Shown in pieces: positions 18,454-63,290 of a stretch of DNA of 64,000 bases; the first letter of the stretch is position 1; every line of letters starts with the position of its first letter. Origin of the DNA: an uncultured Chloroflexia bacterium (lineage in GTDB: Bacteria; Chloroflexota; Limnocylindria; QHBO01); assembly GCA_963805305.1 (NCBI GenBank), contig CAWDTM010000008.1, forward strand, positions 628,620-692,619, written 5' to 3'. Made by a program: the position numbers and the translations under genes. Under the pieces are notes generated by a model. The model saw only the letters and a program-made list of their open reading frames with translations, ran no database searches and was not told where the DNA came from.

Positions 18454-18688
18454 GCCCGGAGCCTCCCCGTAGGGGCCGTAGCCGCGGGTCCCCGGCGGTC
18501 CCCACGCGCAACCCCGCTGGGCGGCATATCCATCGCATGGCGGACCGGGGGTACGTGGAGGGCGGCGCGTCGTAGGCCCGGTGACCCGTCGGGCGAAACG
18601 GACAGCGACTGGGGCGGGAACCGCCGGCCCCGCGCGAGTCAGATATCCCGCGGGGCGGCACAAGGCGAAGGGCGCCCGAGGCGATAAG

Positions 18689-18710
18689 CGGTCGCGAACC
18701 GGGCCGTAAC
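18689..18710 (+). repeat. dispersed intergenic repeat, core CGGTCGYNNNCSGGGYMGTAAC-like copy
   Basis: cggtcgcgaaccgggccgtaac, 18-40 nt upstream of the XRE gene start. Also shares the gcgataagcg box with the region upstream of the paralogue at 49416. Confidence 0.4.
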
Positions 18711-18727
18711 GGTCTCCGCGGACGCTG

Positions 18728-19384
18728 GTGCCGATGTCCAGGCCATCCGAACGTGTCCTGCTCGGCCGCCGCCGGGGCGAGAGGCTGCGCCGGGAGCTGG
18801 GCACCGAGCTGCGACTCGCACGCCGGTCGGCGGGGTTGAGCATCGCCAGCGTCGCCGCGGCGTCGGGATGCTCGGCGGCCGAGGTCTGGCGGATCGAGCA
18901 CGCGGCCGCGTCGTGGGTCTCGATTCAGCGAGCCGCCGTCATCGGCTCCGTGCTTGGGCTCGATCTCACGATGCGGTGCTTCCCCGCCGGGTCGCCGCTG
19001 CGTGACGCCGCTCACCTGGCGCTCATCAGCCGGCTCCGCCCGCACGTCGCCGCGTGGCACGCCAGCCTGGAGGTTCCGCTTCCGATCCTCGGGGATCGGC
19101 GCTCCATCGACGTGGTGCTTTCGTCGGTCGCGGGCAGGATTGGGGTCGAGGCCGAGACGGCGCTGGTGGACATCCAGGCACTGCTGCGCGAGATGCAGCG
19201 CAAGCAACGCGATGCGGGCCTGGATCGCATGGTTCTCCTCGTCCTGCGGTCCAGGCGAAACCGCCTTGCCCTGCGCAGTGCCACGACCGCAATGGCCGAT
19301 GCATTCCCGGTGCCGGCGCGCGCGGTCCTTGGTGCCCTGCGATCCGGTCGGCTCCCGTCGGGAAATGGCATCGTGAGCCTTTGA
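18728..19384 (+). CDS. XRE-family HTH protein with conserved ~140-aa C-terminal domain (paralogue 1)
   Basis: HTH region (LRLARRSAGLSIASVAAASGCSAAEVWRIEHA), then an uncharacterised C-terminal domain ending RAVLGALRSGRLPSGNGIVSL. About 40% identical to the ORF at 49416..50069. Confidence 0.7.
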   Translation: MPMSRPSERVLLGRRRGERLRRELGTELRLARRSAGLSIASVAAASGCSAAEVWRIEHAAASWVSIQRAAVIGSVLGLDLTMRCFPAGSPLRDAAHLALISRLRPHVAAWHASLEVPLPILGDRRSIDVVLSSVAGRIGVEAETALVDIQALLREMQRKQRDAGLDRMVLLVLRSRRNRLALRSATTAMADAFPVPARAVLGALRSGRLPSGNGIVSL

Positions 19385-19597
19385 CAGGAGCCGTACCCGT
19401 GCCGTGACGCGGCACATCCGGCCCACGAGCGGCCCTTCCAGCCCCGGGACGGCTGCGAACCGCGCCCGTCGTTCCGCCCGACGGATCAAGCGCTCCGCGA
19501 GCCCGGGCCCGGAGTGCCTCGTGCGTCAGAAATCCCGCGGGGCGGCGGGGCGGCGGGGCGGGAGGAGCCGGGAGGGCCGGCGCGGGAGGTGCGTGCG

Positions 19598-20041
19598 TCA
19601 GAGGCGCTGCACGAGCCGGAAGCGCTCCGCGATGATGAGGGTGTCGTCGGTGACGTGCCAGTCGGGGTCTCCCAGCCAGGCACGCGTCTCGTCCGCGTAG
19701 TCGTGCCAGAAGCGCTCGTGGGCCTCGCGCCAATCCGCCACGGCGGCGAAGCCCTCACCCTCGTCGTGGGCGAACGACTCGTCGACGTCGCCCACCCGGA
19801 TGGCGCGCGCCTCGAGTATCTCGATGATCGCAACCGGCCGCAGGTCCGAGTCGATCACGACCTGCCGCTCCCCCGGCTGCGCGATGGCGTCGCCCTCCCG
19901 CTCGTAGTCGCTCAACAGGCCGGAGGTGGCCGTCTTCTCGCCGCGCAGGATGGCCGCGATCAGCTCCTCGCGCAGCGGACCCGGGAAGGCGAATTCCACG
20001 ACCGCCAGCCCGTCGATCTCCCGGGGCGCTTGGTCGGTCAT
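19598..20041 (-). CDS. ASCH domain protein
   Basis: 147-aa ORF with an ASCH-like beta-barrel signature (LRGEKTATSG...). Confidence 0.6.
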   Translation of the reverse strand: MTDQAPREIDGLAVVEFAFPGPLREELIAAILRGEKTATSGLLSDYEREGDAIAQPGERQVVIDSDLRPVAIIEILEARAIRVGDVDESFAHDEGEGFAAVADWREAHERFWHDYADETRAWLGDPDWHVTDDTLIIAERFRLVQRL

Positions 20042-21144
20042 GGGCCGATTGTCGCCGATGGCGCCTCCGCCACGAGCTCGCGCGCGCGGTCGATGGTCGC
20101 AAGCGCCGCATCGCGTTCCCGTCTCCCCAGCCCGCAGGAGGTCGCGACATCGACCCGCCGTCCCACGAGGGACTCGATGAGCGCCAGGGTCTCCTGCTGC
20201 TCTGCCAGGGGCCGCGATTCGTGGACGAAGCCGGCGATGAACCGGGTCTGCGACGGAAGCCGCAGCCCACGCAACGGAGTGTAGAACGCGGCCCCATCGG
20301 CGGTCGCGGGCGAGGGTGGGGGCAGGATGGCGGCCGCGAACGGGGCATGGATGAACTCGAGGCTGCGACCCGGCGGCCAGGCGTGCGCGATGGCGTTGGC
20401 GAGCCCCACGAGCGGGGTGACGTCCTTGAGCCGCGCCAGCGCCCGGTGATTCATGTCGCCGACGCAGAGGTGAATCCCGAAGCGCGTGCCGTCCGGCGAA
20501 CGCGCAGCGAGAGCGGCAACTCCCCCACCCAGCCAGTGCGCCACGAGCGGCTGGAGCGGGCCCGGGAATCGCGCGACAAAGACCAGCTCCGCCGGGATCT
20601 CGAGCTGGAAGACAACGTCCGGGCGCCCCGAAGCCTCTCGTCCCGCCAGCGACTGGATCTGCCGTATCTCAGCCAGCGTTGCATCGGCGAACGGGCGGCG
20701 ATGACGGAACGGCCCGGTGGGGCCGAAGACGAAGAGGGCCATGTCGAAGTCCCCGGGGATCCCCACCTGGAAGGCGAGGTCGCCGGCGCCGGGGACGCCC
20801 GCCTCGACCGCGGCCGCACGCCGCCGTACGAACGCGGGATAGGCGGCCTCGAACGGTGCCACGTGCCGGAGGTCCAGCGAGCCGGCACTCAGCCGGTGGC
20901 CTTTGCGCAGGCGGAAGACCGGGGTGCGGTCATAGGCGGACCAGTCGCCCTCCCTGGCGACCTCGAGGTCCGGGTGCGCCCGCAGCGCCTCGATGATGTG
21001 GATGATCCAGTTGCGGCGATCACCGGTCTCGCCGTCGGGGACGCTGTGCAGGTGCCCGCCCAGGCGGTCGAAGGCGATATCGATGGCCTCGTCGGCATCG
21101 GTGAAGGGGGTGCTGCCCACGAGGTGGGCGGCGCGGGTGGCCAT
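20038..21144 (-). CDS. hypothetical protein (MetE/UROD-like fold, tentative)
   Basis: Start set at MATRAAHLVGSTPFTD. No strong motif. 4-nt overlap with the ASCH gene. Confidence 0.4.
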   Translation of the reverse strand: MATRAAHLVGSTPFTDADEAIDIAFDRLGGHLHSVPDGETGDRRNWIIHIIEALRAHPDLEVAREGDWSAYDRTPVFRLRKGHRLSAGSLDLRHVAPFEAAYPAFVRRRAAAVEAGVPGAGDLAFQVGIPGDFDMALFVFGPTGPFRHRRPFADATLAEIRQIQSLAGREASGRPDVVFQLEIPAELVFVARFPGPLQPLVAHWLGGGVAALAARSPDGTRFGIHLCVGDMNHRALARLKDVTPLVGLANAIAHAWPPGRSLEFIHAPFAAAILPPPSPATADGAAFYTPLRGLRLPSQTRFIAGFVHESRPLAEQQETLALIESLVGRRVDVATSCGLGRRERDAALATIDRARELVAEAPSATIGP

Positions 21145-21442
21145 GGTGGTCCTCCATCGGGTCTGTCGCAGGAGAAGCAGGACAGTCGGCGGCGCTCCGC
21201 CGCGGGATGGAGGTGGACCGATGTCGGCCGGTCTACGAACCCTCACCCGAGCAGCGGGGCCGCCCGGGCATCGCCATCGTGGACCAGTGGGGGTTCCAGC
21301 GGGTCATGGTGCGCCGCAGCGTAGCACCCGTGGCAAGGGCGCCGCCCGCGCGTGTCGATTCGGCGGTGCGCCGTTCGTCGAGTGCACGAAGAGGCCGGGA
21401 CAGAGCTCCGGCAATCGACCAGCCCACAGGAGGCACACGGCA

Positions 21443-21781
21443 ATGGCGAACGAGGTCATCCACGTCGAGGTCACCGGGAGCGACGGAGAACGGCTCCAGC
21501 GTTTCTTCCGCGAAGTCTTCGGTTGGGAGATCGACACGAACAACCCGGGCGGCTACGGCATGTACCGCGGCGCGAACGGGATCACCGGAGGGTTCGGCGC
21601 CGCGCCGGAGGGACGGCCCGGCGGCGTCACCTTCTACGTGACGTCGGACGACGCGCAGGCAACGCTGGACCGCGTCGAGGCTGCGGGCGGCCGCGTCCTC
21701 ATGCCGCCCACCGAGGTGGCGCCCGACACCATCGTCGCGCTCTTCGCCGACCCGGAGGGCCACGTCATCGGCCTGATGTAG
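21443..21781 (+). CDS. VOC/glyoxalase family protein
   Basis: MANEVIHVEVTGSDGERLQRFFREVFGWEI...GGRVLMPPTEVAPDTIVALFADPEGHVIGLM. Confidence 0.6.
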   Translation: MANEVIHVEVTGSDGERLQRFFREVFGWEIDTNNPGGYGMYRGANGITGGFGAAPEGRPGGVTFYVTSDDAQATLDRVEAAGGRVLMPPTEVAPDTIVALFADPEGHVIGLM

Positions 21782-22140
21782 TCGCCCCATGGGTACCAGT
21801 CCCATTTCGTCTCTTGCGCCGTCGGGCGGCGTTCCGCAGACTCACGGGGAGACGCTCCGGAGGATTGGTCTTGCCTGCTGACCCATTCGCGACCCAGCCC
21901 GTGGCCACCGGCCTGCTGCTGGCAGCCCTTGCCCTGGCCACCTACCTGTACGGTGCCCTGCTCCGACGGCGCCATGCCCATGAGCGAGCCCTGGAAACGA
22001 GCCTGCACGCCATCGTGGACAACTACGGGCGCTCCGGCCTTCCCTAGGACCCGGATCGTCGTGTCCCGGTAACCGGGGCGTCATCGCGTCGTCACACCCC
22101 CGCGGCATCCTCGGCGGATGACGAGCACGAGGAACCCGCG

Positions 22141-22383
22141 ATGACTGCGAATCCGCGCCGCGCCCTGCGCCTGCTGGGCGCGGTGACCCTTCCGGTCGCC
22201 ATCGCGCTGGCCGCCTGCCAGCCCGCCGGCGCCACCGCCTCCCCCTCCGAAGCGATGATGGACCACTCGGCATCACCCTCGGAGGCGATGATGGAAGAGA
22301 CCGCCTCCCCCTCCGAAGCGATGATGGACCACTCGGCATCACCCTCGGAGGCGATGATGGAAGAGACGGCATCGCCATCGTGA
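22141..22383 (+). CDS. small lipoprotein with Met-rich tandem repeats (putative periplasmic metal/Cu-binding)
   Basis: Signal peptide plus lipobox (LAAC), then four copies of ASPSEAMM(D/E)(H/E)(S/T). Ends 36 nt before the CcdA-thioredoxin gene. Confidence 0.5.
   Translation: MTANPRRALRLLGAVTLPVAIALAACQPAGATASPSEAMMDHSASPSEAMMEETASPSEAMMDHSASPSEAMMEETASPS
22236..22380 (+). repeat. 2.4 copies of a 60-bp tandem repeat (coding)
   Basis: gcctccccctccgaagcgatgatggaccactcggcatcaccctcggaggcgatgatggaagagac is repeated head to tail. Confidence 0.7.
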
Positions 22384-22418
22384 ACCGCCGAGCAGCCGCC
22401 ACGGAGTAGCCGCCGCGC

Positions 22419-23729: not shown

Positions 23730-23803
23730 CCCGCCTCGGCCGGGGAGGCTACAGGGCGTACTCCGGTTCGGGGGCCTCGTGGCTTTGCTTCGCAACGAGG
23801 GCG

Positions 23804-24160
23804 GTGGAGATCCGCGCTGGAAGCAGCGACCCACGCGGCACCATCGAAGGCCCTGAGTACGGTCGCGCCTGGCGCATGTTCGGCACCGATGCCGACGAGG
23901 ACAGCGTGCTGGCATGGTACCGGGCCGCCTACGAAGCCGACGGCTGGGAGCCGGATCGCTATGCGTTTTGCACGATGACCGATGGCAACGGCACGGAGCC
24001 TGGTTGGCGGAAGGGTGATCTGCGGATCGCCGTCGGGTTCATCGACCGTGACTGGGTTGTCCACCTGACACCCAGCTGGGAACCGAAACTGGCCGGTCAC
24101 GCGACGATCTACGAGACGATCATCTTCTACGAACCGCCGAGGGCGAGCCCGTCGGTCTAA
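23804..24160 (+). CDS. hypothetical protein
   Basis: 118-aa ORF. The competing minus-strand ORF 23678..24226 looks less protein-like. Weak call. Confidence 0.3.
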   Translation: MEIRAGSSDPRGTIEGPEYGRAWRMFGTDADEDSVLAWYRAAYEADGWEPDRYAFCTMTDGNGTEPGWRKGDLRIAVGFIDRDWVVHLTPSWEPKLAGHATIYETIIFYEPPRASPSV

Positions 24161-24249: not shown

Positions 24250-24259
24250 CACGCACGAG

Positions 24260-40824: not shown

Positions 40825-41037
40825 GGAATCTGCTCGGTCCTTGTTCGGGTTGGGCGGCGCAGCGTCGCGGCTGCTGCCAACGAGTGCGCGCGGAAGTCTA
40901 CCGCGGATTCGTCAAGAGGTCGTTCCCCTGATCCTGCAGTGCGTTCCTGCCACCTGCTGGCGCGAATCGTCCGTCCCGGCGGCCCGGATCCTCCGCATGG
41001 TTAGCCACACGAGCCTTACGACGCCCGGCGCGGTCTC

Positions 41038-41064
41038 CAATGGTCATTTGGTTACCGATTCGAG
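41038..41064 (+). repeat. dispersed intergenic repeat copy (aatGGTCATTTGGTTACCGATTCGAGC)
   Basis: Near-identical to 61816-61836 (cGGTCGTATGGGTAATCGAGC) and 55787-55808. Confidence 0.5.
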
Positions 41065-41291
41065 CCGGGTGACCCTCGAACCGCCAGCCAGGGCCGCCCA
41101 GAGCTCCGCCGGCGGTCACAGGGTTCGCCACGCTAACCGCGCGCGGGTCCCCCACCCGGCGGTGGGCGCGAATCCATCGACGGGACGAGCGGGATCGCGC
41201 AGAATGTGCCGCACGTTCGCCGCCGGCGGACGGCAGCAGTCCGAGGGGACCCCGCGTTGGCGCTGACCAGCACCGCCCCGGATCCGAACCC

Positions 41292-44200
41292 ATGACGAAA
41301 CCTTCCCCGTCCGCCGAGCTGGCTGCAGCACGGAAACGGATCGCGGAGCTCGAGGCGCGCGAGGCCGCGCACGAGCGCGCCGCCCAGGTGCAGGCGGCGT
41401 TGTATCGCATCGCCGAAACCGCCGCATCGGCTCAGGACCTGCCGACCTTCTACGCCACCGTGCACGAGATCGTGGGCGGCCTCATGTACGCGGACAACTT
41501 CTACATCGCGCTCTACGACGCCGAGCGCGAGCGCATGAACTACCCGTACTTCGTCGACACGTACGACTCGGACGTGCCCGATCCCAACGCGTGGGAGCCG
41601 TTCGGCGTGGGGCAGGCCCGGGGTGTCACCGCCTACGCCCTGCGCAGGGACCAGCCATTGCTCATCGATCCGGCCGAGTATCAGCGCCTCCTGGAGGCCG
41701 GCGAGATCGAGACCCTGGGCGTCGTCAAAGACGAGAGCCAATGGTTGGGCGTGCCACTGCGCGCCGAGGGGAGGACTCTGGGTCTGCTGGTGGTCCAGAG
41801 CTACTCCGCCGACCACCGCTACACCGATGCGGACAAGGACCTGCTGGTGTTCGTTGCCCAGCACGTCGCCTCCGCGCTGACGCGCGCCCGGGCCCTCAAG
41901 GAGACGCGCGAGCGGAACGCCGAGCTGGCGATCGTGAACGAGGTCGGCCTGGCGCTGGCGAAGCAGCTGGATTTCAGCGCCGTGATCAACCTTGTCGGCG
42001 ACCGGATCCGCGAGATCTTCGCGGTCGACACGGGGAACATCGGCCTCTACGACGAGGCAGCTTCCACGATCCAGCTCCCCTACTCCATGGACCAGGGCCG
42101 GCGGCTGGAGATGATCTCGCGACCGTTCGGGACCGGGCTGATGTCGGAGGTGATCAGCACCCGGGCGCCACTGCGTCTCAACACGAACGCCGAGGCGGAG
42201 GCGCATGGAGCCTTCATCTACGGATCCGACGAAGCGGAGTCCTGGCTCGGCGTCCCCATCCTTGCCGGTGATCGCGTTCTGGGCGCCATCGGCCTGGAGC
42301 GAGCCGCCCAGCACGCCTTCAGCGAGTCCGACGAGCGCCTGCTCTCCACGCTCGCCGCCAGCATGGGCGTCGCGCTCGAGAACGCGCGCCTCTTCGACGA
42401 GACCAAGCGGCTCCTGGCCGAGACCGAGCAGCGCAACGCCGAGCTGGCGGTCATCAACGAGATCGGTGCAGCGCTGGCGAAGCAGCTGGATTTCGATGCG
42501 ATCACCGAGCTCGTCGGAGAGCGGGTGCGGGCCATCTTCTCCGCGTCGTCCGTGTTCGTGGCCCTCTACGACGAGGCGTCCGGCGTCATCCGCTTCCCGT
42601 ACGAGATCGGCGAGGGCCAGCGGATGCACACCGAGCCCATGCCGCTCAACGAGGGTCTGACCTCGCAGGTCATCCGCTCCCGGACGTCGTTGCGGCTGGG
42701 GTCCACCGCGGAGTCGAGCGCCGCGGGAGGCATCAGCGTGGGAGATGCCTTCACGGAGTCGTGGGTCGGGGTGCCGATCCTCAGCGCCGGCCGCGTCATT
42801 GGCGTGATTGGCCTCGAAAGCCCGCAGGTCAACGCCTACACGGAGGCCGACGAGCGGCTGCTCGCAACGCTCGCCTCGAGCATGGGCGTGGCCCTGGAGA
42901 ACGCGCGTCTGTTCGGTGAGACGAAGCGCCTCCTGGCCGAGACCGATGCGCGCGCCAACGAGCTCGCGGTCATCAACGAGATCGGTGCGGCCCTGGCGCG
43001 GCAGCTCGATTTCAACGCCATCATCGAGCTCGTCGGCGACCGCGTCTCTCAGATACTCCGCTCCAGGGACGTGTCCATCGCCATCCACGACCCGGCGACA
43101 GACCTCATCAGCTTCCCGTACCAGACGGAGGACGGCAAGCACTTCGTCGATGAACCGATTCCCCTGGGGGCTGGGATCACCTCGCGGATCATCCAGACCA
43201 GGGAACCCCTCCGGATTGGTACGGCAGCCGAGGCCGATCTCCTGGGTGCTCACTGGACGGGGAACACCGCCGAGCGCAAGGACTCGTATCTCGGCGTTCC
43301 CATCCCCGCCAGCGACCGCGTGCTGGGAGTCGTCTCGGTGGTTGCCAGCGCCCCGAACGCCTTCTCGGATGCCGACGAACGCCTGATCTCGACCCTCGCC
43401 ACCTCGATGGGCGTTGCGCTGGAGAACGCGCGCTTGTTCGGCGAGACGAAGCGCCTCCTCGCGGAGACGGACGAGCGTGCGGCCGAGCTGGCCATCATCA
43501 ACAGCGTCCAGCAGGGCCTCGCGGCAAACCTGGACATGCAGGCCATGTACGACCTGGTGGGTGACAAGATCCAGGAGATCTTCGATGCGCAGGTGGTCGA
43601 CATCGGCATCCTCGACAGGGACGCCAACGCGATCCAGTTCACGTACACCATCGAGCGTGGGGTGCGCTTCCCGAACGAGACCATGGCCGTCATCGGGCCC
43701 CGCCGCCACGTCCTTGAGACCCGCGAGCCACTCGTCTTCAACGAGGACCTGCTGAACCAGGTCCGGCAGTACGGGCAGGAGGGCGTGGTGTCCGGCGAGC
43801 TGCCGCAGTCGGCGGTCTACGCGCCGCTCATCAGCGGCGGCGAGGCGCGCGGCGTCATCAGCCTCCAGAACCTCGACCGCGAGCACGCGTTCTCGGATGC
43901 CGACGTCCGGCTCCTGATGACCCTTGCCAGCAGCCTGGCGGTCGCGCTCGACAATGCGCGGCTCTTCGGTGAGACGAGGCGCCTTCTGGGCGAGACGGAC
44001 GAGCGTGCCGCCGAGCTGGCGATCATGAACAGCGTCCAGCAAGGCCTTGCCCAGAACCTGGACATGCAGGCGATGTACGAGCTCGTCGGGGACAAGATCC
44101 AGGAGATCTTCGACTCCCAGGTGGTCGACATCGGCATCTTCGACCTCGAGGCAGGGGTGGTCCGCTATCCATACACCATCGAGCGCGGCGTCCGGTTCCC

Positions 44201-47200
44201 GGACCTGCCCACCCCGCTGGCCATGGCCGACCTGTCGCGCGAGATGCTCGCGACCGGCAGCGCCATCCTGATCAACGACGTCCCGGCCTGGGAGGCCGAG
44301 CGCGAACGTTCGGGCGTTGTCCAGGGAGAGCCGCCCCTCTCGGTCCTTATGGTCCCCATCACCTCTGCCGGCACCATCACCGGGCGGATCTCCCTCCAGA
44401 ACCTCGACCGCAGGAATGCCTTCAGCCAGGCCGATCTCCGGCTTCTCTCGACCCTGGCCGCCAGCCTGTCCGTGGCGCTCGACAACGCCCGGCTCTTCGA
44501 CGAGACGAACCGGCGCGCGGCCGAGCTCGCCATCGTCAACGACCTGCAGCGTGCGCTCGCATCGCAGGTCGACGTGCAGGCCATGTACGAGCTGGTGGGC
44601 GAGCGGGCGAACGACGTCTTCGACACGCACGTCGTGGACATCGCCGTCTTCGACCAGGCCGCTGGGACGATGCGGTTCCCCTTCAGCGTCGAACGCGGCA
44701 GCCGGTTCCCGGACGAAGTGCGGCCCATCATGGGCTTCCGCAAGCACGTCCTCGAGAGCCGCATGCCCCTGCTCATCAGCGAGAAGCTGCGCGAGATCGG
44801 CGCCCAGTACGGGCAGGGAGCGCAGATCAAGGGAGAACCGGCGAAGTCGGCCCTCTTCGTGCCGCTCCTCGTTGGCGAGGAGGTGGCCGGCGTCATCAGC
44901 CTCCAGAACCTCGACCGGGAGCATGCATTCACGGACCGCGACCTCTCCCTGCTGACGACCCTGGCCGCCAGCCTCTCCGTGGCGCTGCGGACCGGGCGCC
45001 TGATCGACGAGACCCGCGCGCGCGTGGCGGAGCTGGCGACCATCAACTCGGTGGGCGAGGCGCTGACCGCGCAGGTCGAGATCGCTCCCCTGCTCGAGGT
45101 GGTTGGCGACAAGCTGCGCGACGCCTTCGGGGCCGATATCGCCTTCATCGCGCTGCTGGACGAGGCGGCGGGCCTCATCCGCTTCCCGTACTACGTCGAA
45201 GCCGGAGCCCGGGAGCCGCAGGAGCCCATGGCCCTTGGCGAAGGCCTCAGCTCGCAGATCATCACCACCCGTGAGCCAATCCTCGCCAACCGCGCAGCGG
45301 AGCTCGAGCACGCCCCGCTGGTCGGCACCCGTCCGCGCTCGTTCCTGGGCGTGCCCATCGTGGTCGGCGAGCGCGCCATCGGCGTCATCAGCGTCCAGAG
45401 CACCACCCAGGAGGGTCGCTTCCAGGAGTCCGATGCCCGCCTGCTGTCGACCATTGCCGCGAACGTGGGGGTCGCCGTCCAGAACGCCCGGCTGTATGAC
45501 GAGACCCGGCAGCGCGCGGACCAGATGGCGGCCCTGGCCGACGTGAGCCGCGAGATCTCCGCCACGCTGGAGCGTTCCGCGGTGCTGCACATGATCGCGG
45601 AGCGCGCGAAGACGCTGCTGCGGGGCGACTCCAGCGTCGTGTACCTGCGCACCGACGACCCCGACGTCTTCCGCGCGGAGGTCGCCATTGGACAGCTGGC
45701 GGATGCCGTCCAGGGATTCCCGCTCCTGCGCGGGACGGGGATCATGGGCGCCATCATCGAGTCCGGCCGCGCCGAGGTCGTGAACGACGCCCGCAACGAC
45801 CCGCGCGCCCAGACCATCCCCGGCACGGAGGACGACGAGGAGGACCGCCTCATGGCGGCACCGCTCATCGTCCGCGGCGAGGTGAGCGGCATGCTCGCGG
45901 TCTGGCGGTCCGTTGGCGTCGAGGACTTCAGCGAGCTGGACCTCAGCTTCCTGGTGGGCCTCTCGCAGCAGGCCGCCATCGCGGTGCAGAACGCCGCGCT
46001 CTTCGAGGACACCCTCGAGGCCCGCCAGGCCGCCGAGCAGGCGAACGAGGCCAAGAGCTCGTTCCTGGCGGCCATGAGCCACGAGATCCGGACCCCGTTG
46101 AACGCGGTGATCGGGATGAGCGGACTGCTCGTCGACACGCCGCTCAACGAGGAGCAGCACGACTACGCGGAGACCATCCGCACCTCCGGAGACGCGCTGC
46201 TGACCATCATCAACGACGTCCTGGACTTCTCGAAGATCGAGGCGGGCCGCGTGGAGCTCGAGGCGCGACCGTACGTTCTCCGCGAGGCCGTCGAGGCGTC
46301 GCTCGACATCCTGGCGCCCACGGCGGCCAAGAAGGGCCTGGAGCTGGTCTACGCCATCGACGAGGACCTGCCAACGGTCCTCGTCGGCGACGCCGGCCGC
46401 CTGCGCCAGGTGGTCCTGAACCTGCTCTCGAACGCGGTGAAGTTCACCGAGCGCGGGGAGGTGCTCGTCACCGTGGCCGGGGCGGAGGTGCGCGCCGCGA
46501 CCGGTCGTGCCGCGGCGACCTGGGAGATCCGGGTCGACGTGCGGGACACCGGCATCGGGATCCCCGCCGCCGCCATGGATCGGCTCTTCCAGTCCTTCAG
46601 CCAGGTGGACGCCTCCATTGCACGCCGGTACGGCGGCACCGGACTGGGCCTGGCCATCAGCCGCCGCCTGGCCGAGCTGATGGACGGCTCCCTGACCGCG
46701 GAGAGCAGCGGCAAGGCCGGGGAGGGCAGCACCTTCCACCTGGTGATCCGCAACCCGGTCGGCAGGGCGGACGCCGTGGCCTCCACCCGCGCACCGCGCA
46801 TCGAGGCGGACCTCGGCGGCAAGACGGTCCTGATCGTGGACGACAATGCCACGAATCGCCGCATCCTCGTCGCCCAGACCGCTCGGTGGGGCATGGTCCC
46901 GCGGGAGACGGGCTCCCCCACCGAAGCGCTGGCCTGGCTTGCCGGCGGGGAGCGGTTCGAGGTCATCCTCTCCGACCTGATCATGCCGGAGATGGACGGC
47001 CTGGAGCTCGCCGCGCAGGTTCGCGCGTCGAACGGCAAAGGCGTCCCGCCACCGGTCGTGATCCTCTCCTCCATAGGGCTCCGGGAGCGCGACGACGGGA
47101 GCGTCGCCGGCTGGCTCGCCAAGCCGGTCAAGCCCTCCGCCCTGCATGACACCATCGCAACCATCCTGCTCGGCGGGGTTGCCACCCAGGCGGCTGCGGT

Positions 47201-47684
47201 CGCCACCAGCGGGGCCGACGCCGACACCGTCCTCGGGGAGCGGCACCCGCTGCGCATCCTCCTCGCGGAGGACAACGCGGTGAACCAGAAGCTTGCCCTC
47301 CGGCTCCTGGCCCAGCTCGGCTACGCAGCCCCGGTGGCAGGGGACGGGCTGCAGGCCATTTCGGCGCTCGAAGGCGGCGACTTCGACGTTGTCCTCATGG
47401 ACGTCCAGATGCCGGAGCTCGATGGGCTGGAGGCGACCCGCCGCATCCGCGCCCGCTGGCCGGACCGTCCGCTGCGGATCGTGGCCATGACCGCCAACGC
47501 CATGGCCGGCGACCGCGAGGCGTGCCTCGCGGCGGGCATGGACGACTACATCAGCAAGCCCATTCGCGTCGCGGAGCTCACCGCGGCGCTCGAGCGGGTG
47601 CCGGGCACCGGTCCGACGATTGGCCGGCATCGGACCCGCAAGCAGTCCTCCAGGACCAACGGCAAGAGGAACGCACGTGCCTGA
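41292..47684 (+). CDS. multi-GAF (about 9-10 domains) hybrid sensor histidine kinase with two receiver domains
   Basis: Repeating units: GAF domains separated by conserved coiled-coil linkers (ENARLF(D/G)ETKRLLAET(D/E)...AELA(V/I)IN). Then HisKA ([20 protein letters not shown]), HATPase_c ([13 protein letters not shown]) and two REC domains ([13 protein letters not shown]; [13 protein letters not shown]). 2130 aa. Confidence 0.85.
41886..45560 (+). repeat. intragenic diverged tandem repeat array (~525-bp period, about 8 units) encoding linker+GAF modules
   Basis: Linker-coding blocks recur at ~41886, 42381, 42900, 43425, 43950, 44475, 44990 and 45480. Adjacent units share up to ~85% nucleotide identity by eye. 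Confidence 0.55.
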
Positions 47685-49133: not shown

Positions 49134-49174
49134 GGCGCCGCGGCGGCACGGTGGGGCGCGAGCCTGCGCCGGCC

Positions 49175-49185
49175 GGGTGGTAACC
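49175..49185 (+). repeat. dispersed repeat core (GGGTGGTAACC)
   Basis: Lies in the 282-nt intergenic region upstream of XRE paralogue 2 that holds three motif copies. Confidence 0.35.
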
Positions 49186-49230
49186 CCATTGCCGGTGTGA
49201 CCGCCCGGCCACGAGCGGTCGGCGCCGGAC

Positions 49231-49247
49231 GGTTGGCCGGGTAATCC
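49231..49247 (+). repeat. dispersed repeat copy (GGTTGGCCGGGTAATCC)
   Basis: Same intergenic region. Confidence 0.4.
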
Positions 49248-49311
49248 AGCAGACCGCGCAGCCGGTGGGCCTGTCCCTGGGCGGAGACCAGCTCCCGAAC
49301 GGCGTCTTCGG

Positions 49312-49330
49312 CGGTCGTTCGGGCAATGCC
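49312..49330 (+). repeat. dispersed repeat copy (CGGTCGTTCGGGCAATGCC)
   Basis: Same intergenic region. Reads in-frame as GGRSGNAMTGRAWAARGRVVTPR. Confidence 0.45.
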
Positions 49331-49415
49331 ATGACCGGCCGGGCGTGGGCGGCGCGGGGGCGGGTGGTAACGCCGCGATAAGCGTGCGGTGGGCGTCCCG
49401 CGGCAATGATCTGGC

Positions 49416-50069
49416 ATGGCCGCGCGCACGAACCGCGTCGACGAGGCTGGACGGCGGGCCTCATGGCAGCTGGCCGGCCTGGTTCGTGAGCTCCGCGCGG
49501 CTCGCGTCAGCGCGGGCCTCAGCCAGGCCACGGTCGCCCGCGCGGTGGGCTGCTCCCGCGAGCTGGTGAAGGCCTGGGAAAGCGGCCGTTCGAGTCCCTC
49601 GGTCACGCGGCTCGCCCGCTGGGCGTGCGCAGTCGGGCTGGACGTTCCGCTGCGGACCTATCCCGGTGGATCGCCGCTTCGCGACGCGGGGCAGCTGCGC
49701 GCGCTGGGGCGCGCTCGCGCCACCATCGGCGGCGAATGGGCGTGGCGTGCAGAGGTGCCGGTCAGTTCGGACCCGCTGGACCGCCGGGCGGTAGATGCGG
49801 TGCTCGAGCTGGACGAGGTGCGCGTCGGCGTGGAGGTCGTTTCCCGGCTCGGCGATGCTCAGGCCGAGGTCCGCCGGGCCATCCTGAAACAGGAGGTCGC
49901 ACAGCTGGACCGGTTGCTCCTGGTGCTGCCCGATACCCGTCACAACCGGCGCGCCGTGATGGAGGGCGCCGCGACGCTGCGAAGCGCGTTCCCTCTTGCC
50001 TCGCGGGCGGTCCTGGCCGCCTTGCGCGCAGGGCGGCTTCCGGGCGCCAATGGAGTGCTGCTCGTCTGA
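49416..50069 (+). CDS. XRE-family HTH protein with conserved C-terminal domain (paralogue 2)
   Basis: HTH (LRAARVSAGLSQATVARAVGCSRELVKAWESGRSSPS). C-terminus ends RAVLAALRAGRLPGANGVLLV, homologous along its length to 18728..19384. Confidence 0.7.
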   Translation: MAARTNRVDEAGRRASWQLAGLVRELRAARVSAGLSQATVARAVGCSRELVKAWESGRSSPSVTRLARWACAVGLDVPLRTYPGGSPLRDAGQLRALGRARATIGGEWAWRAEVPVSSDPLDRRAVDAVLELDEVRVGVEVVSRLGDAQAEVRRAILKQEVAQLDRLLLVLPDTRHNRRAVMEGAATLRSAFPLASRAVLAALRAGRLPGANGVLLV

Positions 50070-50156
50070 TCCGCGTGGCCGCGCCTCGCTGAATTGGTAA
50101 TCCACGTACCCGCACGACCGCGGGCCGGACACCAGCGCCGTTCTTCCAGGCACGTG

Positions 50157-50176
50157 GGGGTCGCCCGGGTAACGCC
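50157..50176 (+). repeat. dispersed repeat copy (GGTCGCCCGGGTAACGCC)
   Basis: Between XRE paralogue 2 and the methyltransferase gene. Reads in-frame as GRPGNALT. Confidence 0.45.
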
Positions 50177-50261
50177 CTGACCCATCTGACCGCCGCGGAC
50201 CACCCCGCCGGTGCAACCGGCAACCCCATGACCGAAGGAGCCGGTACGGTATCGTGCCGGG

Positions 50262-54086: not shown

Positions 54087-54260
54087 ATCCGGTCCCTCCC
54101 TCCGCGGCGCCCTGCCGCTCCATCGCCCACTGTAGGTCGCCAGTCTGCGCTTGACACGATCCCGGAACGTTGACGGCGCCAACATTCCGGTCCGGGTGGT
54201 GATCTGGGGACCCGTCCGACCGCCGAAACGTCCCTGACCCGTGCGCAGGGGCCTCTCCGT

Positions 54261-54278
54261 GGTCACTCGGGTGATCCC
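54261..54278 (+). repeat. dispersed repeat copy (GGTCACTCGGGTGATCCC)
   Basis: Downstream (3' side) of the membrane cyclase gene. Confidence 0.4.
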
Positions 54279-54310
54279 ATGACCACCACGACCGGGCAGC
54301 CGTCAGCCGA

Positions 54311-54330
54311 CGGTCGTACCGGTAATCAGG
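54311..54330 (+). repeat. dispersed repeat copy (CGGTCGTACCGGTAATCAGG)
   Basis: In-frame DGRTGNQAT. Inverted partner at 55725-55759. Confidence 0.5.
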
Positions 54331-54380
54331 CCACCATCCGGAGACTCCACCCTCGACGCCGCGAGCGAGAACGACGGGAC

Positions 54381-55802
54381 TCAGGCCCGGGCAACCTGCG
54401 GCGAAGGCACCGCTCGCCGGCCGAGCAGGAACCAGGTCTCCATGTCGCCCTTGCCCTTGATGGGCACGCTGCCCCTCGCCTCGCACGCGAACTCGTCGCG
54501 GAGCAGCTCGTACGTCGCCTGCGTGATCTGGATCCGGCCCGGCGTGCCCTGCGTCTGCATGCGGCCCGCGGTGTTCACCGCGTCTCCCCACAGGTCATAG
54601 AGGAACCGCTTGCGACCAATGACCCCGGCCACCAGGGGTCCCGAGTTGATCCCGATCCGCAGCTCGAAGCCCAGGGATCCCATGGCGCCGGTCGAGCGAA
54701 CCGCATCGAGCATGTCGAGGGCCAGGAGGGCAACCGCCTGAGCATGGTCGGGACGGGGCGCCGGGATGCCGGCGGCGGCCATGTAGCAGTCGCCGATGGT
54801 CTTGATCTTCTCCAGGTCGTAGCGCTCCACCAGCTCGTCGAAGTGACCGAAGAGCTGGTCCAGCATCTCCACGATCTGGGCCGGCGGGAGGTGCTCGGCC
54901 AGGGGCGTGAAGTCCACGACATCGGCGAACAGGACCGATGCCGACGTGAAGGAATCCGCGATGGTCCTGGTCTCCGTCTTGAGCTTCTCCGCGATGGAGC
55001 GTGGCAGCACGTTGAGGAGCAGGTTCTCGGCGCGCGCCTGCTCGGCGCGCAGGGCGGCCAGCGCGTCCTGCCGCTGGATGGCGAAGACAGCGAGCAGGGT
55101 GAAGACGATGGTTCCGCCGACCGTCACGTTGAGGGCCAGCATGATGCTCGTGAACCAGGCCGGCACCGGCGACAGCGGATGCCACAGCTCGCCCGCGATG
55201 CCCGAGACCACGAACAGCGCCAGGAATCCCACGAACCAGCGGATGCCGGCCCGCACGCTGTCGAAGACCAGGGCGCCCATGGGGCCCAGGAGGCCCCACA
55301 GACCCACACCGCCCGAGGCGAGGAAGCCGCCGATGGGGATCATGGACAGGCACGTGGTGAGCATGATGTCCAGCTGTTCGGCGCGGAGGAGGAGCATCCG
55401 GTTCCGGGTGCGGGCGAACGCGAGGATTGCGACGAGGGAGACCGTGAAGTACACGAACGGGAGGTAGCCGAGCGGCGAGCCGAAGGCGAGGTACAGGCTC
55501 CCCCACACCAGGGAGACGGGCAGGATGAGCACCGAGATGAGGACCAGCAGCCCGTTGCGCCGCCTGGTCTCCTCGTCGTCCTCCGGCCTGGCGCCAACCG
55601 TGGCCAGCCACGCGAAGAGCGCCGCACCCGAGTCGCGCAGAGTGGTCACCGCCGCAGGATACCGCCCCCCGCGCGCCTCCGGCCCCCTCGACCCCCTCGA
55701 CGCCCCCCCTTCCACGGTGTGGTTGGTAGCCTGATTGCCCATCCGACCGACGACCGTCCGCACAACGGCCGCACGAGGGTCCTCAGCGGTCATTTGGGTC
55801 AC
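54381..55802 (-). CDS. membrane-anchored (6-TM) class III adenylate cyclase; true start probably downstream of 55802
   Basis: Six hydrophobic helices, then a canonical cyclase domain (VLFADVVDFT...EKIKTIGDCYMAAAG...RIGINSGPLVAGVIG). The first ~55 codons of the ORF are built from the dispersed repeat (..GRMGNQATNH..), so the start is likely an internal GTG/ATG. Confidence 0.75.
   Translation of the reverse strand: MTQMTAEDPRAAVVRTVVGRMGNQATNHTVEGGASRGSRGPEARGGRYPAAVTTLRDSGAALFAWLATVGARPEDDEETRRRNGLLVLISVLILPVSLVWGSLYLAFGSPLGYLPFVYFTVSLVAILAFARTRNRMLLLRAEQLDIMLTTCLSMIPIGGFLASGGVGLWGLLGPMGALVFDSVRAGIRWFVGFLALFVVSGIAGELWHPLSPVPAWFTSIMLALNVTVGGTIVFTLLAVFAIQRQDALAALRAEQARAENLLLNVLPRSIAEKLKTETRTIADSFTSASVLFADVVDFTPLAEHLPPAQIVEMLDQLFGHFDELVERYDLEKIKTIGDCYMAAAGIPAPRPDHAQAVALLALDMLDAVRSTGAMGSLGFELRIGINSGPLVAGVIGRKRFLYDLWGDAVNTAGRMQTQGTPGRIQITQATYELLRDEFACEARGSVPIKGKGDMETWFLLGRRAVPSPQVARA
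55725..55759 (-). repeat. dispersed repeat copy in inverted orientation (revcomp GGACGGTCGTCGGTCGGATGGGCAATCAGGCTACC)
   Basis: Reverse complement matches 54311-54330 (GACGGTCGT...AATCAGGC.ACC). With that copy it forms an inverted pair bracketing the cyclase gene. Confidence 0.5.
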
Positions 55803-55808
55803 CCGATC
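55787..55808 (+). repeat. dispersed repeat copy (CGGTCATTTGGGTCACCCGATC)
   Basis: Direct-orientation copy similar to 54261-54278 and 41038-41064. Confidence 0.5.
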
Positions 55809-55893
55809 ACCACGCTGACCGGGGACCCATCCTCCGGCGGTCGCACGGGTACGTGGGCCGCCACTCCCGCGCGATCAAAACGCTGCCGGACGG

Positions 55894-57785: not shown

Positions 57786-57840
57786 GCGGGCACTCTAGCC
57801 CGCCGTCCGCCGTTGCGCCTCGGCGGGAAGGCGTACCAGC

Positions 57841-57860: not shown

Positions 57861-57972
57861 CCGCGCGGGAATCAGCCCATCGGCCGAGGATGGTCAGACC
57901 GCACGGTGGACGACGAGGATCAACCAGCCCCGCACGCTGGCAGTCGATTCGCAACCCACCCTGGAGGCACCC

Positions 57973-61055: not shown

Positions 61056-61194
61056 CGTGTGCGACGGTGGGTGCGGGGTCCACATGGAGTATGCTTGATG
61101 CCTGCCGTCTCCGGCAGACTCGCTTGGTCGATGGGTTCTTCTCGAACCGGCCGCGCGCCGTTGTTTCGTTCGAGAAGAGACCAGAGGAACCATC

Positions 61195-61398
61195 ATGACC
61201 AGCGGTACCGTCAAGAAGCTCATCAGTGAGCGCGGCTTCGGCTTCATCACCGCCGAGGACGGCAAGGACTACTTCTTCCACAAGGACGGCCTGTCGAGCT
61301 CGCTCGATTTCGACCGCCTCGTGGGCGGCGAGGCCGTGACCTTCGAGGTCGAGGCAGGCCCCAAGGGCCCGCGCGCCATCCAGGTCCAGTCCGCCTAG
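61195..61398 (+). CDS. cspA: cold-shock protein (CspA family)
   Basis: MTSGTVKKLISERGFGFITAEDGKDYFFHKDGL: RNP1/RNP2 motifs. Long 5' UTR region upstream. Confidence 0.9.
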   Translation: MTSGTVKKLISERGFGFITAEDGKDYFFHKDGLSSSLDFDRLVGGEAVTFEVEAGPKGPRAIQVQSA

Positions 61399-61452
61399 TC
61401 CAACCGGTCACGGTGGCCGGTCGCATGGCCGGCCACCGCGGCTTCATCTCCC

Positions 61453-61677
61453 ATGACCGATGAGTCCCGCCTGCGCAAGGTCCTGCGCCTGCGCGGGTTA
61501 TGGCGCAGGGGATCCGAGCAGGCTCCCGACGCGCATCGGTCCACAGAGGATCAGGCGGCGCACCGCCGCTCGGATGCCCTCGACTCCAACGATCGGATTC
61601 GCGCCGAGGCTCCCAACGACCTCGAGACGCGCCGCCGCGCCGACCAGCTCGAGCGCGAGATCAAGCGCACCCACTGA
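61453..61677 (+). CDS. hypothetical small basic protein
   Basis: 74-aa ORF only. Low-complexity Arg/Asp-rich. Confidence 0.25.
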   Translation: MTDESRLRKVLRLRGLWRRGSEQAPDAHRSTEDQAAHRRSDALDSNDRIRAEAPNDLETRRRADQLEREIKRTH

Positions 61678-61743
61678 CCGCACCCCCCGCCCGGTAACCA
61701 GGTGACCACCGCGACCGCCGGCGAGTCGCTCCGGACCCCTCCG

Positions 61744-61761
61744 CGGTCGCCCGGGTAAGCC
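61744..61761 (+). repeat. dispersed repeat copy (CGGTCGCCCGGGTAAGCC)
   Basis: In-frame GRPGKPVTATTGEGPRAPAAHRANGRMGNRA*. Confidence 0.45.
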
Positions 61762-61815
61762 CGTTACCGCGACGACCGGCGAAGGACCCCGCGCGCCCGC
61801 CGCGCATCGCGCCAA

Positions 61816-61836
61816 CGGTCGTATGGGTAATCGAGC
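61816..61836 (+). repeat. dispersed repeat copy (CGGTCGTATGGGTAATCGAGC)
   Basis: Identical core to 63097-63116. Confidence 0.5.
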
Positions 61837-61852
61837 ATAGGGAAGGTCCCGG

Positions 61853-62575
61853 TCAGGACTCGCCGGAGAGGTCCCGGTCCTCCATCTCCCAGGCATGGTC
61901 GAGCACGTGGTACGCGGCGTGGCGGATCACGAACTGGACGGTCCAGTTCCGCGCCGCAACGCCATGCGCGTTGGCCTCGCGGATCGCGGCGCAGAACGCA
62001 TCGCGGTACGCGCGCAGGGCAACGGGATCTCGCTGCGCTTCGATGGGCGTGTCAAGGCCCACCTTCCGCGCGAAGTCGCTGATCTCCACGTTGTTCACGT
62101 GCTCCACGATCCGGTCGCGGTCTCGCCCACCACCCCGCGGCCCCTTGCGCAGCACCGCGGACACCCGCGAGGCAACGTCGTCGAAGTAGGTCCAGCTCGC
62201 TCGCAGCAGGGCAATCTTGCGGTCGCAGGCCGCCTCGCTGATCTGCTCCTGCTCGGGTCCGGCTGGCCGCATGGAGAGCCCGTAGAAATCGGTCATGCCA
62301 ATCCCCTCGATGCGCTCGACCACCACCGGGTCGCCGATGTCGCCGAACTCCTTCGCGAGGCCGGCACGCTCCGCGACCCCGGCGTACCGCGGGCCATACC
62401 GGGAGAGCACCTCGATGGCATCGTCTTCCGAGCGCCCGCTCCGCTCCCAGCCCGGCCAGTCGAAGGCCACGGCCACGGCGACGGGCTTCTTCCTGCCCCG
62501 CTCGATCATCACGCGGATGGGGTCGCTCACGCGCACATGGTCGCACACGAGGGATGCTCGTCCCGGCGCGACCAT
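61853..62575 (-). CDS. hypothetical protein (DinB/YfiT-like helical bundle, tentative)
   Basis: Start set at MVAPGRASLV. The sequence upstream within the ORF is low-complexity Asp/Gly-rich. Confidence 0.4.
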   Translation of the reverse strand: MVAPGRASLVCDHVRVSDPIRVMIERGRKKPVAVAVAFDWPGWERSGRSEDDAIEVLSRYGPRYAGVAERAGLAKEFGDIGDPVVVERIEGIGMTDFYGLSMRPAGPEQEQISEAACDRKIALLRASWTYFDDVASRVSAVLRKGPRGGGRDRDRIVEHVNNVEISDFARKVGLDTPIEAQRDPVALRAYRDAFCAAIREANAHGVAARNWTVQFVIRHAAYHVLDHAWEMEDRDLSGES

Positions 62576-62629
62576 CGGCTGCGGTCCGCCCGGCACTGGA
62601 CCTGGGGCCGCCCAATGGGCTCTACTACG

Positions 62630-62992
62630 CCGATGGCGACTGCCAACCTTGCCCTGCGCTTCCTGCTGGAGCTCGCAGGATTCGCCGGCGCCGGCTACGC
62701 CGTCTACGAGGTGACCAGTGGCGTCCCCTCCATTCCGCGCTGGATCCTGGCCATCGGCGGTGGGCTGGCGGTCATCGGCCTGTGGGGATTCGTCGTGGCT
62801 CCACGAAGGCAGAACGGGCTCTCGCAGGCGCGGAAGGACGTCATTGGCACGGTCATCCTGCTGGTCATTGCCGGTGTCGTCTGGGTGGCCGGCCAACCGG
62901 GACTGGGCATCGGGTTTGGCGTCCTGCTGATCGTCAACTCGCTGCTGCTCTTCGTGTTCGGCCAGGACGCCCGCGAGCGGTTCGAGGCATGA
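62630..62992 (+). CDS. small integral membrane protein (YrdB/DUF2568-like)
   Basis: MATANLALRFLLELAGFAGAGYAV... with three to four TM helices. ~120 aa. Confidence 0.45.
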   Translation, partial: PMATANLALRFLLELAGFAGAGYAVYEVTSGVPSIPRWILAIGGGLAVIGLWGFVVAPRRQNGLSQARKDVIGTVILLVIAGVVWVAGQPGLGIGFGVLLIVNSLLLFVFGQDARERFEA

Positions 62993-63096
62993 CCAGGGGG
63001 CGGATCCCCGTCCAGCGACCAGCCAACGGTCAGGACCCGGCGCCGGTAATCAGCGGACCACAACGACCGCCGTGCAGCGACGCCCGGCTCGCTCCG

Positions 63097-63116
63097 CGGT
63101 CGTATGGGTAACCGCC
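63097..63116 (+). repeat. dispersed repeat copy (CGGTCGTATGGGTAACCGCC)
   Basis: Contains the ATG of the 62-aa ORF 63104..63292 (MGNRPTRTTDERPESPAAHGINGRLGNPVTT...). Confidence 0.5.
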
Positions 63117-63168
63117 CTACCCGGACGACGGACGAACGCCCCGAATCGCCGGCCGCGCACGGCATCAA

Positions 63169-63193
63169 CGGTCGTTTGGGCAACCCGGTTACC
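63169..63193 (+). repeat. dispersed repeat copy (CGGTCGTTTGGGCAACCCGGTTACC)
   Basis: Second copy, 72 nt downstream, in the same frame (INGRLGNPVTT). Confidence 0.5.
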
Positions 63194-63290
63194 ACCCGCG
63201 GGCGAACTCGCGGCCCGTTGGCGGTTCCGGAGCGACGCGCTACGCTCTGCACGGTTATCGGATCACCCCACGAAACTCGGAGAGATGCCT

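Follow-up and report, generated by a model that had tools for sequence, protein, structure and literature searches.

The window analysed here, a 64-kb stretch of the genome of an uncultured Chloroflexia bacterium (~70% G+C throughout), carries in the gaps between its genes a previously undescribed family of palindromic repeats, one that is limited to a small group of uncultured soil Chloroflexota and was found in three related genomes. Overall, we believe it to be a lineage-specific, non-coding, non-autonomous and modular family of the same kind as the REPs (repetitive extragenic palindromes) of proteobacteria, with their bacterial interspersed mosaic elements (BIMEs), and the BOX elements of pneumococci; we assign this reading a probability of roughly 0.6. 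It is carried by the enrichment and exclusively intergenic placement of the copies in the window, by the build of a ~42-nt palindromic module and of the composites into which such modules are joined, and by the way in which stems and copy numbers differ between close relatives.

Identification of the family and its repeated unit

Carrier-genome sequence amounts to about 116 kb over three metagenome-assembled genomes (MAGs) of the Microflora Danica type, all Chloroflexota: the 64 kb of the window and stretches of 17, 11 and 21 kb from the others. One of these, here L002, belongs to the MAG 'uncultured Chloroflexia bacterium MFD02416.bin.1.132', the only close GTDB genome, whose permease is 81% identical to that of the window and which is syntenic with the window at 48-64 kb. 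The third MAG is represented by two loci, L134 and L193, on ERZ25039483 contig_29201. Seven other related loci (102 kb of matching G+C, including the locus L133, with cyclase homologues 69-80% identical) form a comparison set that lacks the arrays; one cyclase homologue carries the name 'Candidatus Limnocylindrales bacterium'.

That a dispersed repeat family exists, as the original prediction held, is borne out by an enrichment far beyond chance. Scanned across the window with up to three mismatches, the core sequence from which that prediction started, CGGTCGTNTGGGTAAY, has 16 matches where 1.9 are expected; a strict pattern that spans the inner hairpin and the right arm (GGTRAYCNNNKBACCNNNNCGACCG) has 5 where 0.00 are expected; and of the 11 instances of GGTAA[CT], a rare hexamer, in the 64 kb, 10 lie inside arrays. 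Eighteen instances were aligned by eye and with MAFFT to give a profile hidden Markov model (HMM, run with nhmmer), and a covariance model, R1, was built from the modules. The latter finds about 20 sites in the window at 22-44 bits, all of them within seven intergenic gaps, as are all of its window matches with E<0.05, and none in a coding-like open reading frame (ORF). Five of the seven gaps lie between co-directional genes, one between convergent and one between divergent genes, and each composite has one of its ends 4-44 nt away from a stop codon.

The fourteen positions listed at the outset did not all prove equal. Twelve are modules (49175, 49231, 49312, 50157, 54261, 54311, 55725 on the minus strand, 55787, 61744, 61816 as a half module, 63097 and 63169), and the copy at 41038 is a degenerate relic, with 12.7 bits under the HMM. 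The copy at 18689 is a member by neither the HMM nor the covariance model; its resemblance comes from GCGATAAGCG, an element taken up below with the XRE genes, and the family begins at about 41.0 kb, not at 18.6 kb. About seven modules had been overlooked (49357, 50085, 50207, 54187, 55836, 61683 and 63037).

The unit is also larger than the element of ~17-25 nt that was first described. Each module is an imperfect palindrome of ~42 nt in which CGGTCG is separated from GGTRAY by 3-4 variable bases, and a loop of 2-5 nt is then followed by RTYACC or KKACC, 4 variable bases and CGACCG(CCGAA): an inner stem of 5-6 bp (GGTRAY / RTYACC) set between outer arms (CGGTCG / CGACCG), of which the original 16-nt core is the left half. 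Its palindromic nature follows from the module HMM, which matches identical sites on both strands. Standard pairs are found at the first three inner-stem positions in 85-100% of modules, varying with genome and pair, and at two independent loci the outer stem has compensatory A-T pairs (CGGTCA...TGACCG); the units of L134 form a near-perfect 14-bp hairpin with one mismatch. The left arm is followed by TAT, TTT, TAC, CCC, TAA, GAT and other triplets, and a consistent unpaired GTAG/CGTC end tag was not found among the copies: as a sequence following the arm, GTAG is confined to L002 4934 and to two right arms read in reverse complement; in L134 and L193 it is part of the paired stem, and a few copies have it as CGGTCGTAG.

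Modules stand head to tail, two to five in a row, and form composites of ~140-225 nt with a centre-to-centre spacing of mostly ~51, 61, 72 or 82 nt (outliers 48.5, 57 and 69.5). Nine composites from two genomes can be aligned across 140-175 nt, spacers included, and the repeated unit is therefore the composite, not the short motif. Its type is A-B(n)-C, with the left outer arm missing from A, the right one missing from C and both present in B. A-B1-C is usual; A-B2-C is found at 49.2 kb of the window and at 9.7 and 13.4 kb of L193, and A-B3-C at L134 10040-10324, a row of five near-identical units with a period of 60-61 nt. Two L193 arrays have the loop of their C module in inverted form (GGTAGTGGGGCTACC against GGTAGTCCCACTACC), and for about 25-30 nt this module is close to the reverse complement of A, so that these composites have terminal inverted repeats; short ones, TGGTGAYC...GRTCACCA, are present in L002 as well. 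The L134 array has C not inverted relative to A, with A and B direct, an orientation that can be read from the loops and arms only. Six window composites share one orientation; a rule that would tie it to the replication strand was dropped, since the arrays on the L134/L193 contig point in both directions.

Distribution among related genomes

In L002 arrays stand at 3.2, 7.0, 13.1 and 15.4 kb, with a single module at 4.9 kb, and the contig of L134 and L193 holds them at six loci, three of which are orthologous to the window sites at 41.04, 49.2 and 50.1 kb. A full three-module array (L193 1996-2146) occupies the gap that keeps only the 41.04 relic in the window; L193 9682-9903, with four modules, is orthologous to the composite at 49.2 and L193 10687-10847 to that at 50.1. 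From L002, 6996-7156 corresponds to window 55.7 and 13102-13277 to window 61.7, with the C module complete in L002. The strong matches in all three loci lie between called genes, with the single exception of a 22.5-bit match at L193 19001-19043, within a called dehydrogenase gene. Arrays occur about once per 4-9 kb in the carrier DNA covered.

Outside these genomes no array of the family was found in the sequence searched. The covariance model gives nothing above 18 bits in the 102 kb of the comparison set. Rfam has no match to the window at gathering thresholds, and E-value searches of two array regions returned chance-level matches only. BLAST against plasmid and phage collections gave no match, the strict pattern has 47 single matches in the whole of IMG/VR with no arrays, and a pattern scan of metagenomes produced at least 120 single chance-level matches, with no array in 725 kb of such loci.

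Other repeats are found beside these. L133 has instead a dispersed intergenic repeat of its own, of 153 nt, in 7 copies within 21 kb at 73-100% identity (Table 1), and intergenic repeats specific to a lineage seem to be plentiful in this group of organisms in general. In L002 the array at 3236-3411 is directly followed by a short tandem repeat (3404-3445, CCGATGGGG x4-5) that is absent from the window. For those who work with these MAGs, dense repeats that fill the spacers and vary between close relatives can be expected to fragment assemblies of metagenomes and to confuse gene callers and CRISPR finders; at the same time, such a family is a ready marker for strain typing.

Concerted evolution and turnover of the arrays

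The inner stem differs by genome and is self-complementary at all loci of each, its variants being GGTAA/TTACC, GGTGA/TCACC and GGTAG/CTACC. The fourth inner pair (pair 10) is G-C in 8 of 8 L002 modules and A-T in 12 of 12 modules of L134 and L193; the fifth (pair 11) is G-C in all 12 of the latter and A-T elsewhere; and the window modules have mostly A at both positions, with several mismatches. The state of the stem tracks the genome and not the locus, orthologous arrays included, and some paralogous copies are at least as similar as orthologous ones (71% between the window composites at 61.7 and 63.1, against 62% between window 61.7 and L002 13.1; a 100-nt portion of the 63.1 composite is 73% identical to the 61.7 copy). 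Taken together, the genome-specific stems and the similarity of paralogues indicate that dispersed copies evolve in concert. The switch of a stem base pair, genome-wide and at orthologous loci, is a clear case of such evolution, one that implies a trans-acting factor or efficient ectopic gene conversion. An active process probably keeps the copies alike. It would be either a sequence-specific protein acting in trans, which binds the hairpin or dyad and evolves along with it in the way of the REP-associated tyrosine transposases (RAYTs) and their REPs, or gene conversion between copies at separate sites.

Arrays are also gained, lost and amplified between relatives. The B unit (~61 nt) has been amplified in tandem in L134; the L002 array at 3236-3411 stands where the window has a 42-nt gap; and at the place of the window composite at 54.2, L002 has the C module alone (4931-4970), a 1-kb gene having taken the position of A and B. 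The slot between the response-regulator/cyclase gene and the methyltransferase gene has no cassette and one decayed array in L002, one cassette and two arrays in the window, and two cassettes and three arrays in L193; where the window has its 49.2 composite, L002 shows decayed traces only and the XRE gene is missing. A 2-kb segment with its own array (61853-63920), which encodes an unknown 225-aa protein, a DUF2568 protein, a 63-aa membrane protein and a YCII-like protein, is absent from L002 (13253-13320). An insertion of this segment within the hairpin loop of the C module at 61.83 kb was considered; realignment shows instead a 12-nt deletion internal to the hairpin, with homology that continues ~12 nt further, and the junction of the segment therefore lies just beyond the array. 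These gene-cassette differences at array borders are suggestive only. Effects of the repeat on its host would be secondary: stable hairpins would come to lie in intercistronic and 3' RNA, and the dispersed direct homology that it supplies could make arrays the sites of gene-cassette deletion or insertion. A cold-shock gene copy follows the methyltransferase gene in both L002 and L193.

Arguments against a dispersed repeat family

Of the three options offered by the original prediction, a repeat resembling MITEs (miniature transposable elements with inverted repeats) or REPs is the best supported, by the palindrome, the intergenic and modular build, the restriction to a lineage, the presence differences, the tandem amplification and the genome-specific stems, but the mobility that the option includes is only putative. 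Several observations weigh against our version of it. In the flanks of the nine aligned copies no direct target-site duplication can be seen. Neither a transposase or integrase nor a Y1/HUH protein (Y1_Tnp) is found among the 38 window ORFs scanned against Pfam or, for the related loci, in their precomputed Pfam lists; the earlier statement that transposases and integrases are lacking thus holds for those 38 ORFs, among which there is no cas gene either, and the dispersing enzyme is not encoded in the window. All window copies sit in the 41-64 kb portion, and the covariance scan finds none in the many gaps of 1-40 kb. Predicted RNA folding of seven array regions is no better than that of shuffled controls (z +0.3 to -2.1), and a pooled covariation test on the modules does not reach significance, since the majority of pairs do not vary and such changes as occur go with lineage; tabulation of pairs genome by genome is more informative. 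The symmetric changes in the palindrome are equally expected for a dimeric DNA-binding protein. Finally, the pattern of arrays at indel borders is in part trivial, since whole-gene indels must end in intergenic DNA.

Table 1. Coordinates of the repeat composites, of the XRE genes and of the repeat of locus L133
Feature	Position (strand)	Modules and scores	Setting
Relic	41037..41149 (+)	one module without the left half of the inner hairpin (GGTCATTTGG / TTACCGATTCGAGC) and a weak second site; nhmmer 12.7 bits at 41040-41081, covariance model 17.9 bits at 41108-41149	divergent gap, MFS gene / giant GAF kinase gene
Composite 49.2, four modules	49167..49392 (+)	49167, 49228, 49310, about 49357; HMM and covariance model	response-regulator/cyclase gene (stop 49133); XRE-HTH/nuclease-like gene (start 49416)
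Composite 50.1, A-B-C	50084..50243 (+)	50084, 50156, 50207	XRE gene (stop 50069); methyltransferase gene (start 50262)
Composite 54.2, A-B-C	54186..54350 (+)	54186, 54258, 54309	minus-strand genes: small gene (start 54085), cyclase (stop 54381)
Composite 55.7, three modules	55710..55871 (+)	55710-55754 (better on minus), 55785-55826, weak 55833-55871	cyclase (start GTG 55646, -); LuxR-type response regulator (stop 55894, -)
Composite 61.7, A-B-C	61681..61848 (+)	61681, 61742, 61814; C module without right half of hairpin	convergent genes, stop 61677 (+) and stop 61853 (-)
Composite 63.1, A-B-C	63036..63206 (+)	63036, 63095, 63167	DUF2568 gene (stop 62992); 63-aa membrane-protein gene (start 63292)
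XRE-type HTH protein with C-terminal PD-(D/E)xK nuclease-like domain, 217 aa	49416..50069 (+)		arrays on both sides; possible partner, a lead only
XRE paralogue in the window	18728-19384 (+)
XRE homologue in L133	5419-6072 (-)
XRE homologue in L193	10001-10627
153-nt repeat of L133, 7 copies	5247-5383, 6141-6293, 6343-6495, 12849-12976, 13653-13780, 16930-17080, 19516-19646

Alternative explanations

A hairpin, whether of RNA or of single-stranded DNA, would account for the palindrome and its symmetric changes, and so would a dimeric protein that binds DNA; two alternatives grow out of this ambiguity. Arrays might be double-stranded DNA platforms for a lineage-specific dimeric or tetrameric protein, be it nucleoid-associated, a global regulator or the HTH-nuclease-like protein whose gene lies between two of them, with four GGTN half-sites per module (-> -> <- <-) about one helical turn apart and the proteins on one face of the helix. 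The cores CGGTCG, GGT, ACC and CGACC are invariant or nearly so across old diverged copies while spacers drift; the step between main spacing classes is about 10.5 nt, and each class is a whole multiple of about 10.2 nt; the half-sites change symmetrically and throughout a genome, as if the specificity of a protein had shifted; RNA folding is unexceptional; and several arrays lie upstream of signalling genes, with an HTH gene between two arrays in two genomes. Yet arrays are also found between convergent genes or right after stops (61.7 kb; L193 10.7 kb), where operators are unexpected, and five-unit tandem expansion with loss and decay between close relatives is the dynamics of a repeat, not of a conserved regulon. 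The spacing classes, moreover, come from homologous composites and are few independent observations, and slippage of a ~10-nt sub-repeat gives steps of 10-11 nt too. The binding-site array of the original prediction is conceivable in general, given the phased spacing and invariant cores, but its specific link to the XRE proteins is weak: L002 has arrays and no XRE gene at the slot, and neither paralogue 18728 nor L133 has family arrays. On balance we regard a binding platform as unlikely. Less likely still is that the arrays act as RNA, transcribed with their neighbours and retained for a function as terminators or attenuators without U-tracts, as processing sites or as 3'-end stabilisers that uncouple cistrons. 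All composites do lie close to a stop codon, in co-directional or convergent gaps, the stems differ between genomes in a compensatory way with some G-T wobble pairs, and co-transcribed REP and BOX elements are known to act so (PMC3733652, PMC3049150). Against this stand folding energies in the shuffled range, a terminator and promoter scan that finds no such site and no U-tract in the arrays, the lack of an Rfam family, composites in both orientations relative to transcription, and a strict conservation of the stem-end sequence beyond pairing that is unusual for pure structure.

Two further readings would give the arrays a different origin altogether. The original prediction had noted that the copies share a G-R-x-G-N peptide and might be remnants of a duplicated leader peptide or small upstream ORF rich in Arg, Gly and Thr. 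A stop-free frame does run through some copies, and the 62-aa ORF at 63104-63292, said to be built of two of them, has an ATG, but its G+C at the three codon positions is flat (0.65/0.68/0.68), against 0.70/0.47/0.94 in the adjacent real gene and 0.43-0.52 and 0.84-0.94 at the second and third positions of nearby genes. The Logan annotation that covers this DNA has no call for it, and the 63.1-kb frame used as a peptide query has no homologue at E<=10 among 5.8 billion proteins; the ORF is spurious. Stops break the frame in other copies, and the elements match both strands equally well. The ~55 N-terminal codons of the membrane cyclase, likewise ascribed to the repeat, are an artefact of taking the longest ORF: synteny with the relative ends at ~55655, a GTG start lies at 55646, and the extension has non-coding composition. 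The shared peptide is merely the translated DNA repeat, the palindrome GGT AAC CCN GTT ACC reading G-N-P-V-T, which is a coincidence of palindromic codons. (Some chance matches to the pattern, such as that at 150-185 of a metagenome locus, L060, lie in genes for Ig-like (Big) domains, in which GGTAATCCCGTTACCGGGGCGACCGTC encodes ...SGNPVTGATV....) Within the reach of sequence analysis the leader-peptide option is refuted, and we give it next to no credence. Degenerate CRISPR arrays, or integron attC-like sites between mobile gene cassettes, are hardly better placed and strike us as very improbable. Palindromic repeats of ~36-42 nt with a 61-72-nt periodicity would suit either, as would an array number equal to cassettes plus one in the response-regulator/cyclase to methyltransferase slot of three genomes. 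The 'spacers', however, are homologous between arrays and identical within L134, the 38 scanned ORFs include no cas gene or integrase, the attC core GTTRRRY / RYYYAAC is absent (GTTACC is not GTTRRRY), and the neighbouring genes lie on both strands.

The XRE-nuclease gene as a possible partner

The gene that lies between the composites at 49.2 and 50.1 encodes an XRE-type helix-turn-helix (HTH) protein with a nuclease-like domain, a member of a small family (105 matches) that is apparently confined to these Chloroflexota. Its C-terminal domain, covered by no Pfam or NCBIfam model, has a NucS/XisH/Hjc-like fold in which E113, D127, D147, Q149 and K158 are invariant. The original prediction placed repeats beside both XRE paralogues of the window. 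This holds for the gene at 49416, which is flanked on both sides, and not for that at 18728, which is free of family arrays. The sequence GCGATAAGCG occurs exactly twice in the window (18681-18690 and 49375-49384), about 40 nt upstream of the start codon of each paralogue, and is probably a shared promoter or operator element; it explains the apparent copy at 18689. Paralogue 18728 is bracketed by repeats of its own (18582-18659 and 19470-19546), with inverted 19-nt arms (TGACCCGTCGGGCGAAACG / CGTTCCGCCCGACGGATCA) and a direct 30-nt repeat (..GTCAGAWATCCCGCGGGGCGGC), which were not found elsewhere in the sequences examined.

All inspected copies of the XRE-nuclease gene are bracketed by repeats of some kind: by family arrays in two genomes, by private repeats at 18728 and, in L133, by three copies of the 153-nt repeat. 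We treat the association as a lead only, since L002 has arrays without the gene at the slot and repeats are dense in these regions. One might go further and suppose a lineage-specific system of DNA rearrangement, for which the arrays serve as cis sites and the HTH and PD-(D/E)xK protein as trans factor, a counterpart of REP/RAYT with another class of enzyme. The HTH-nuclease would then recognise or cut the two-tier hairpin or dyad, leading to homogenisation of the stems and to gain and loss of cassettes. We consider such a system a long shot; were the HTH-nuclease to prove the factor, a new type of enzyme associated with repeats would be at hand.

Gene context and other features of the window

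Among the 38 ORFs scanned against Pfam, those at 1-40 kb are housekeeping and catabolic genes, and those at 41-64 kb are signalling genes, among them cyclases, a hybrid kinase with nine GAF domains and a two-component pair of the LuxR type. The giant hybrid histidine kinase (41292-47684, +) has nine GAF domains, HisKA, HATPase and two receiver domains, and its GAF domains are encoded by tandem coding repeats of ~520 nt that are 60-79% identical. A heliorhodopsin gene (3619-4401, -; PF18761, E 2e-99) adjoins the genes for threonyl-tRNA synthetase and IF-3, and a 33-nt tandem repeat (66-nt units, copies 100% identical) lies at 22234-22398. A link with BstEII-like restriction was rejected: GGTNACC is commoner than expected across the whole window (37 against 14.8), mostly as GGTCACC or GGTGACC in coding sequence, and is not specific to the arrays.

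Comparison with known repeat systems

To our knowledge, palindromic repeats that are small and interspersed have good descriptions from proteobacteria, firmicutes, mycobacteria and cyanobacteria, hardly any from Chloroflexota, and none from the abundant uncultured soil lineages related to Limnocylindrales. The mycobacterial interspersed repetitive units (MIRUs) offer a first parallel, with units of 40-100 nt that form short tandem arrays at many intergenic loci scattered over a high-G+C genome, a unit number that varies between strains and ORF-like frames. MIRUs are not built on a strong two-tier palindrome, however, and lie inside operons with overlapping start and stop codons, whereas the arrays described here have distinct end modules.

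That last property is shared with the BOX elements of Streptococcus pneumoniae and S. suis, which are written boxA-(boxB)n-boxC, vary in their number of boxB and carry spurious ORFs (PMC3049150). The likeness extends to the tandem internal modules of variable number between distinct ends, the intergenic placement, the terminal inverted repeats, the extensive predicted secondary structure, the narrow clade and the spurious ORFs (PMC3049150). At the same time, by the published description the two are unlike in length and composition; the boxes are non-palindromic and of about 45-59 nt, in contrast to the self-palindromic modules of ~42 nt found here, and our element is G+C-rich, not AT-rich, with no insertion sequence known to have matching ends. 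Given the host phylum and base composition, homology to pneumococcal boxA, boxB and boxC is very unlikely.

With REPs and BIMEs the family shares imperfect G+C-rich palindromes of 20-40 nt that are extragenic and lie mostly between co-directional or convergent genes, regularly spaced composites, a sequence specific to species or genome that implies co-evolution with a trans factor, and a role as rearrangement hot spots (PMC2817692, PMC3333891, PMC3733652); REPs themselves are species-specific and co-evolve with RAYTs (PMC2817692). It differs in the lack of the consistent unpaired GTAG/CGTC tag of the two REP super-families, in modules that, as far as loops and arms show, run head to tail where REPs alternate in orientation within BIMEs, in a two-tier stem with an internal loop, in spacers that are part of the repeat, and in that no RAYT is seen in the sequence covered. 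The only REP family reported for Chloroflexi is the GTAG-23 family of Thermomicrobium roseum (PMC3733652). Compared by description and not by sequence, it comes from the same phylum and a likewise G+C-rich host, and there too the elements are mostly clustered.

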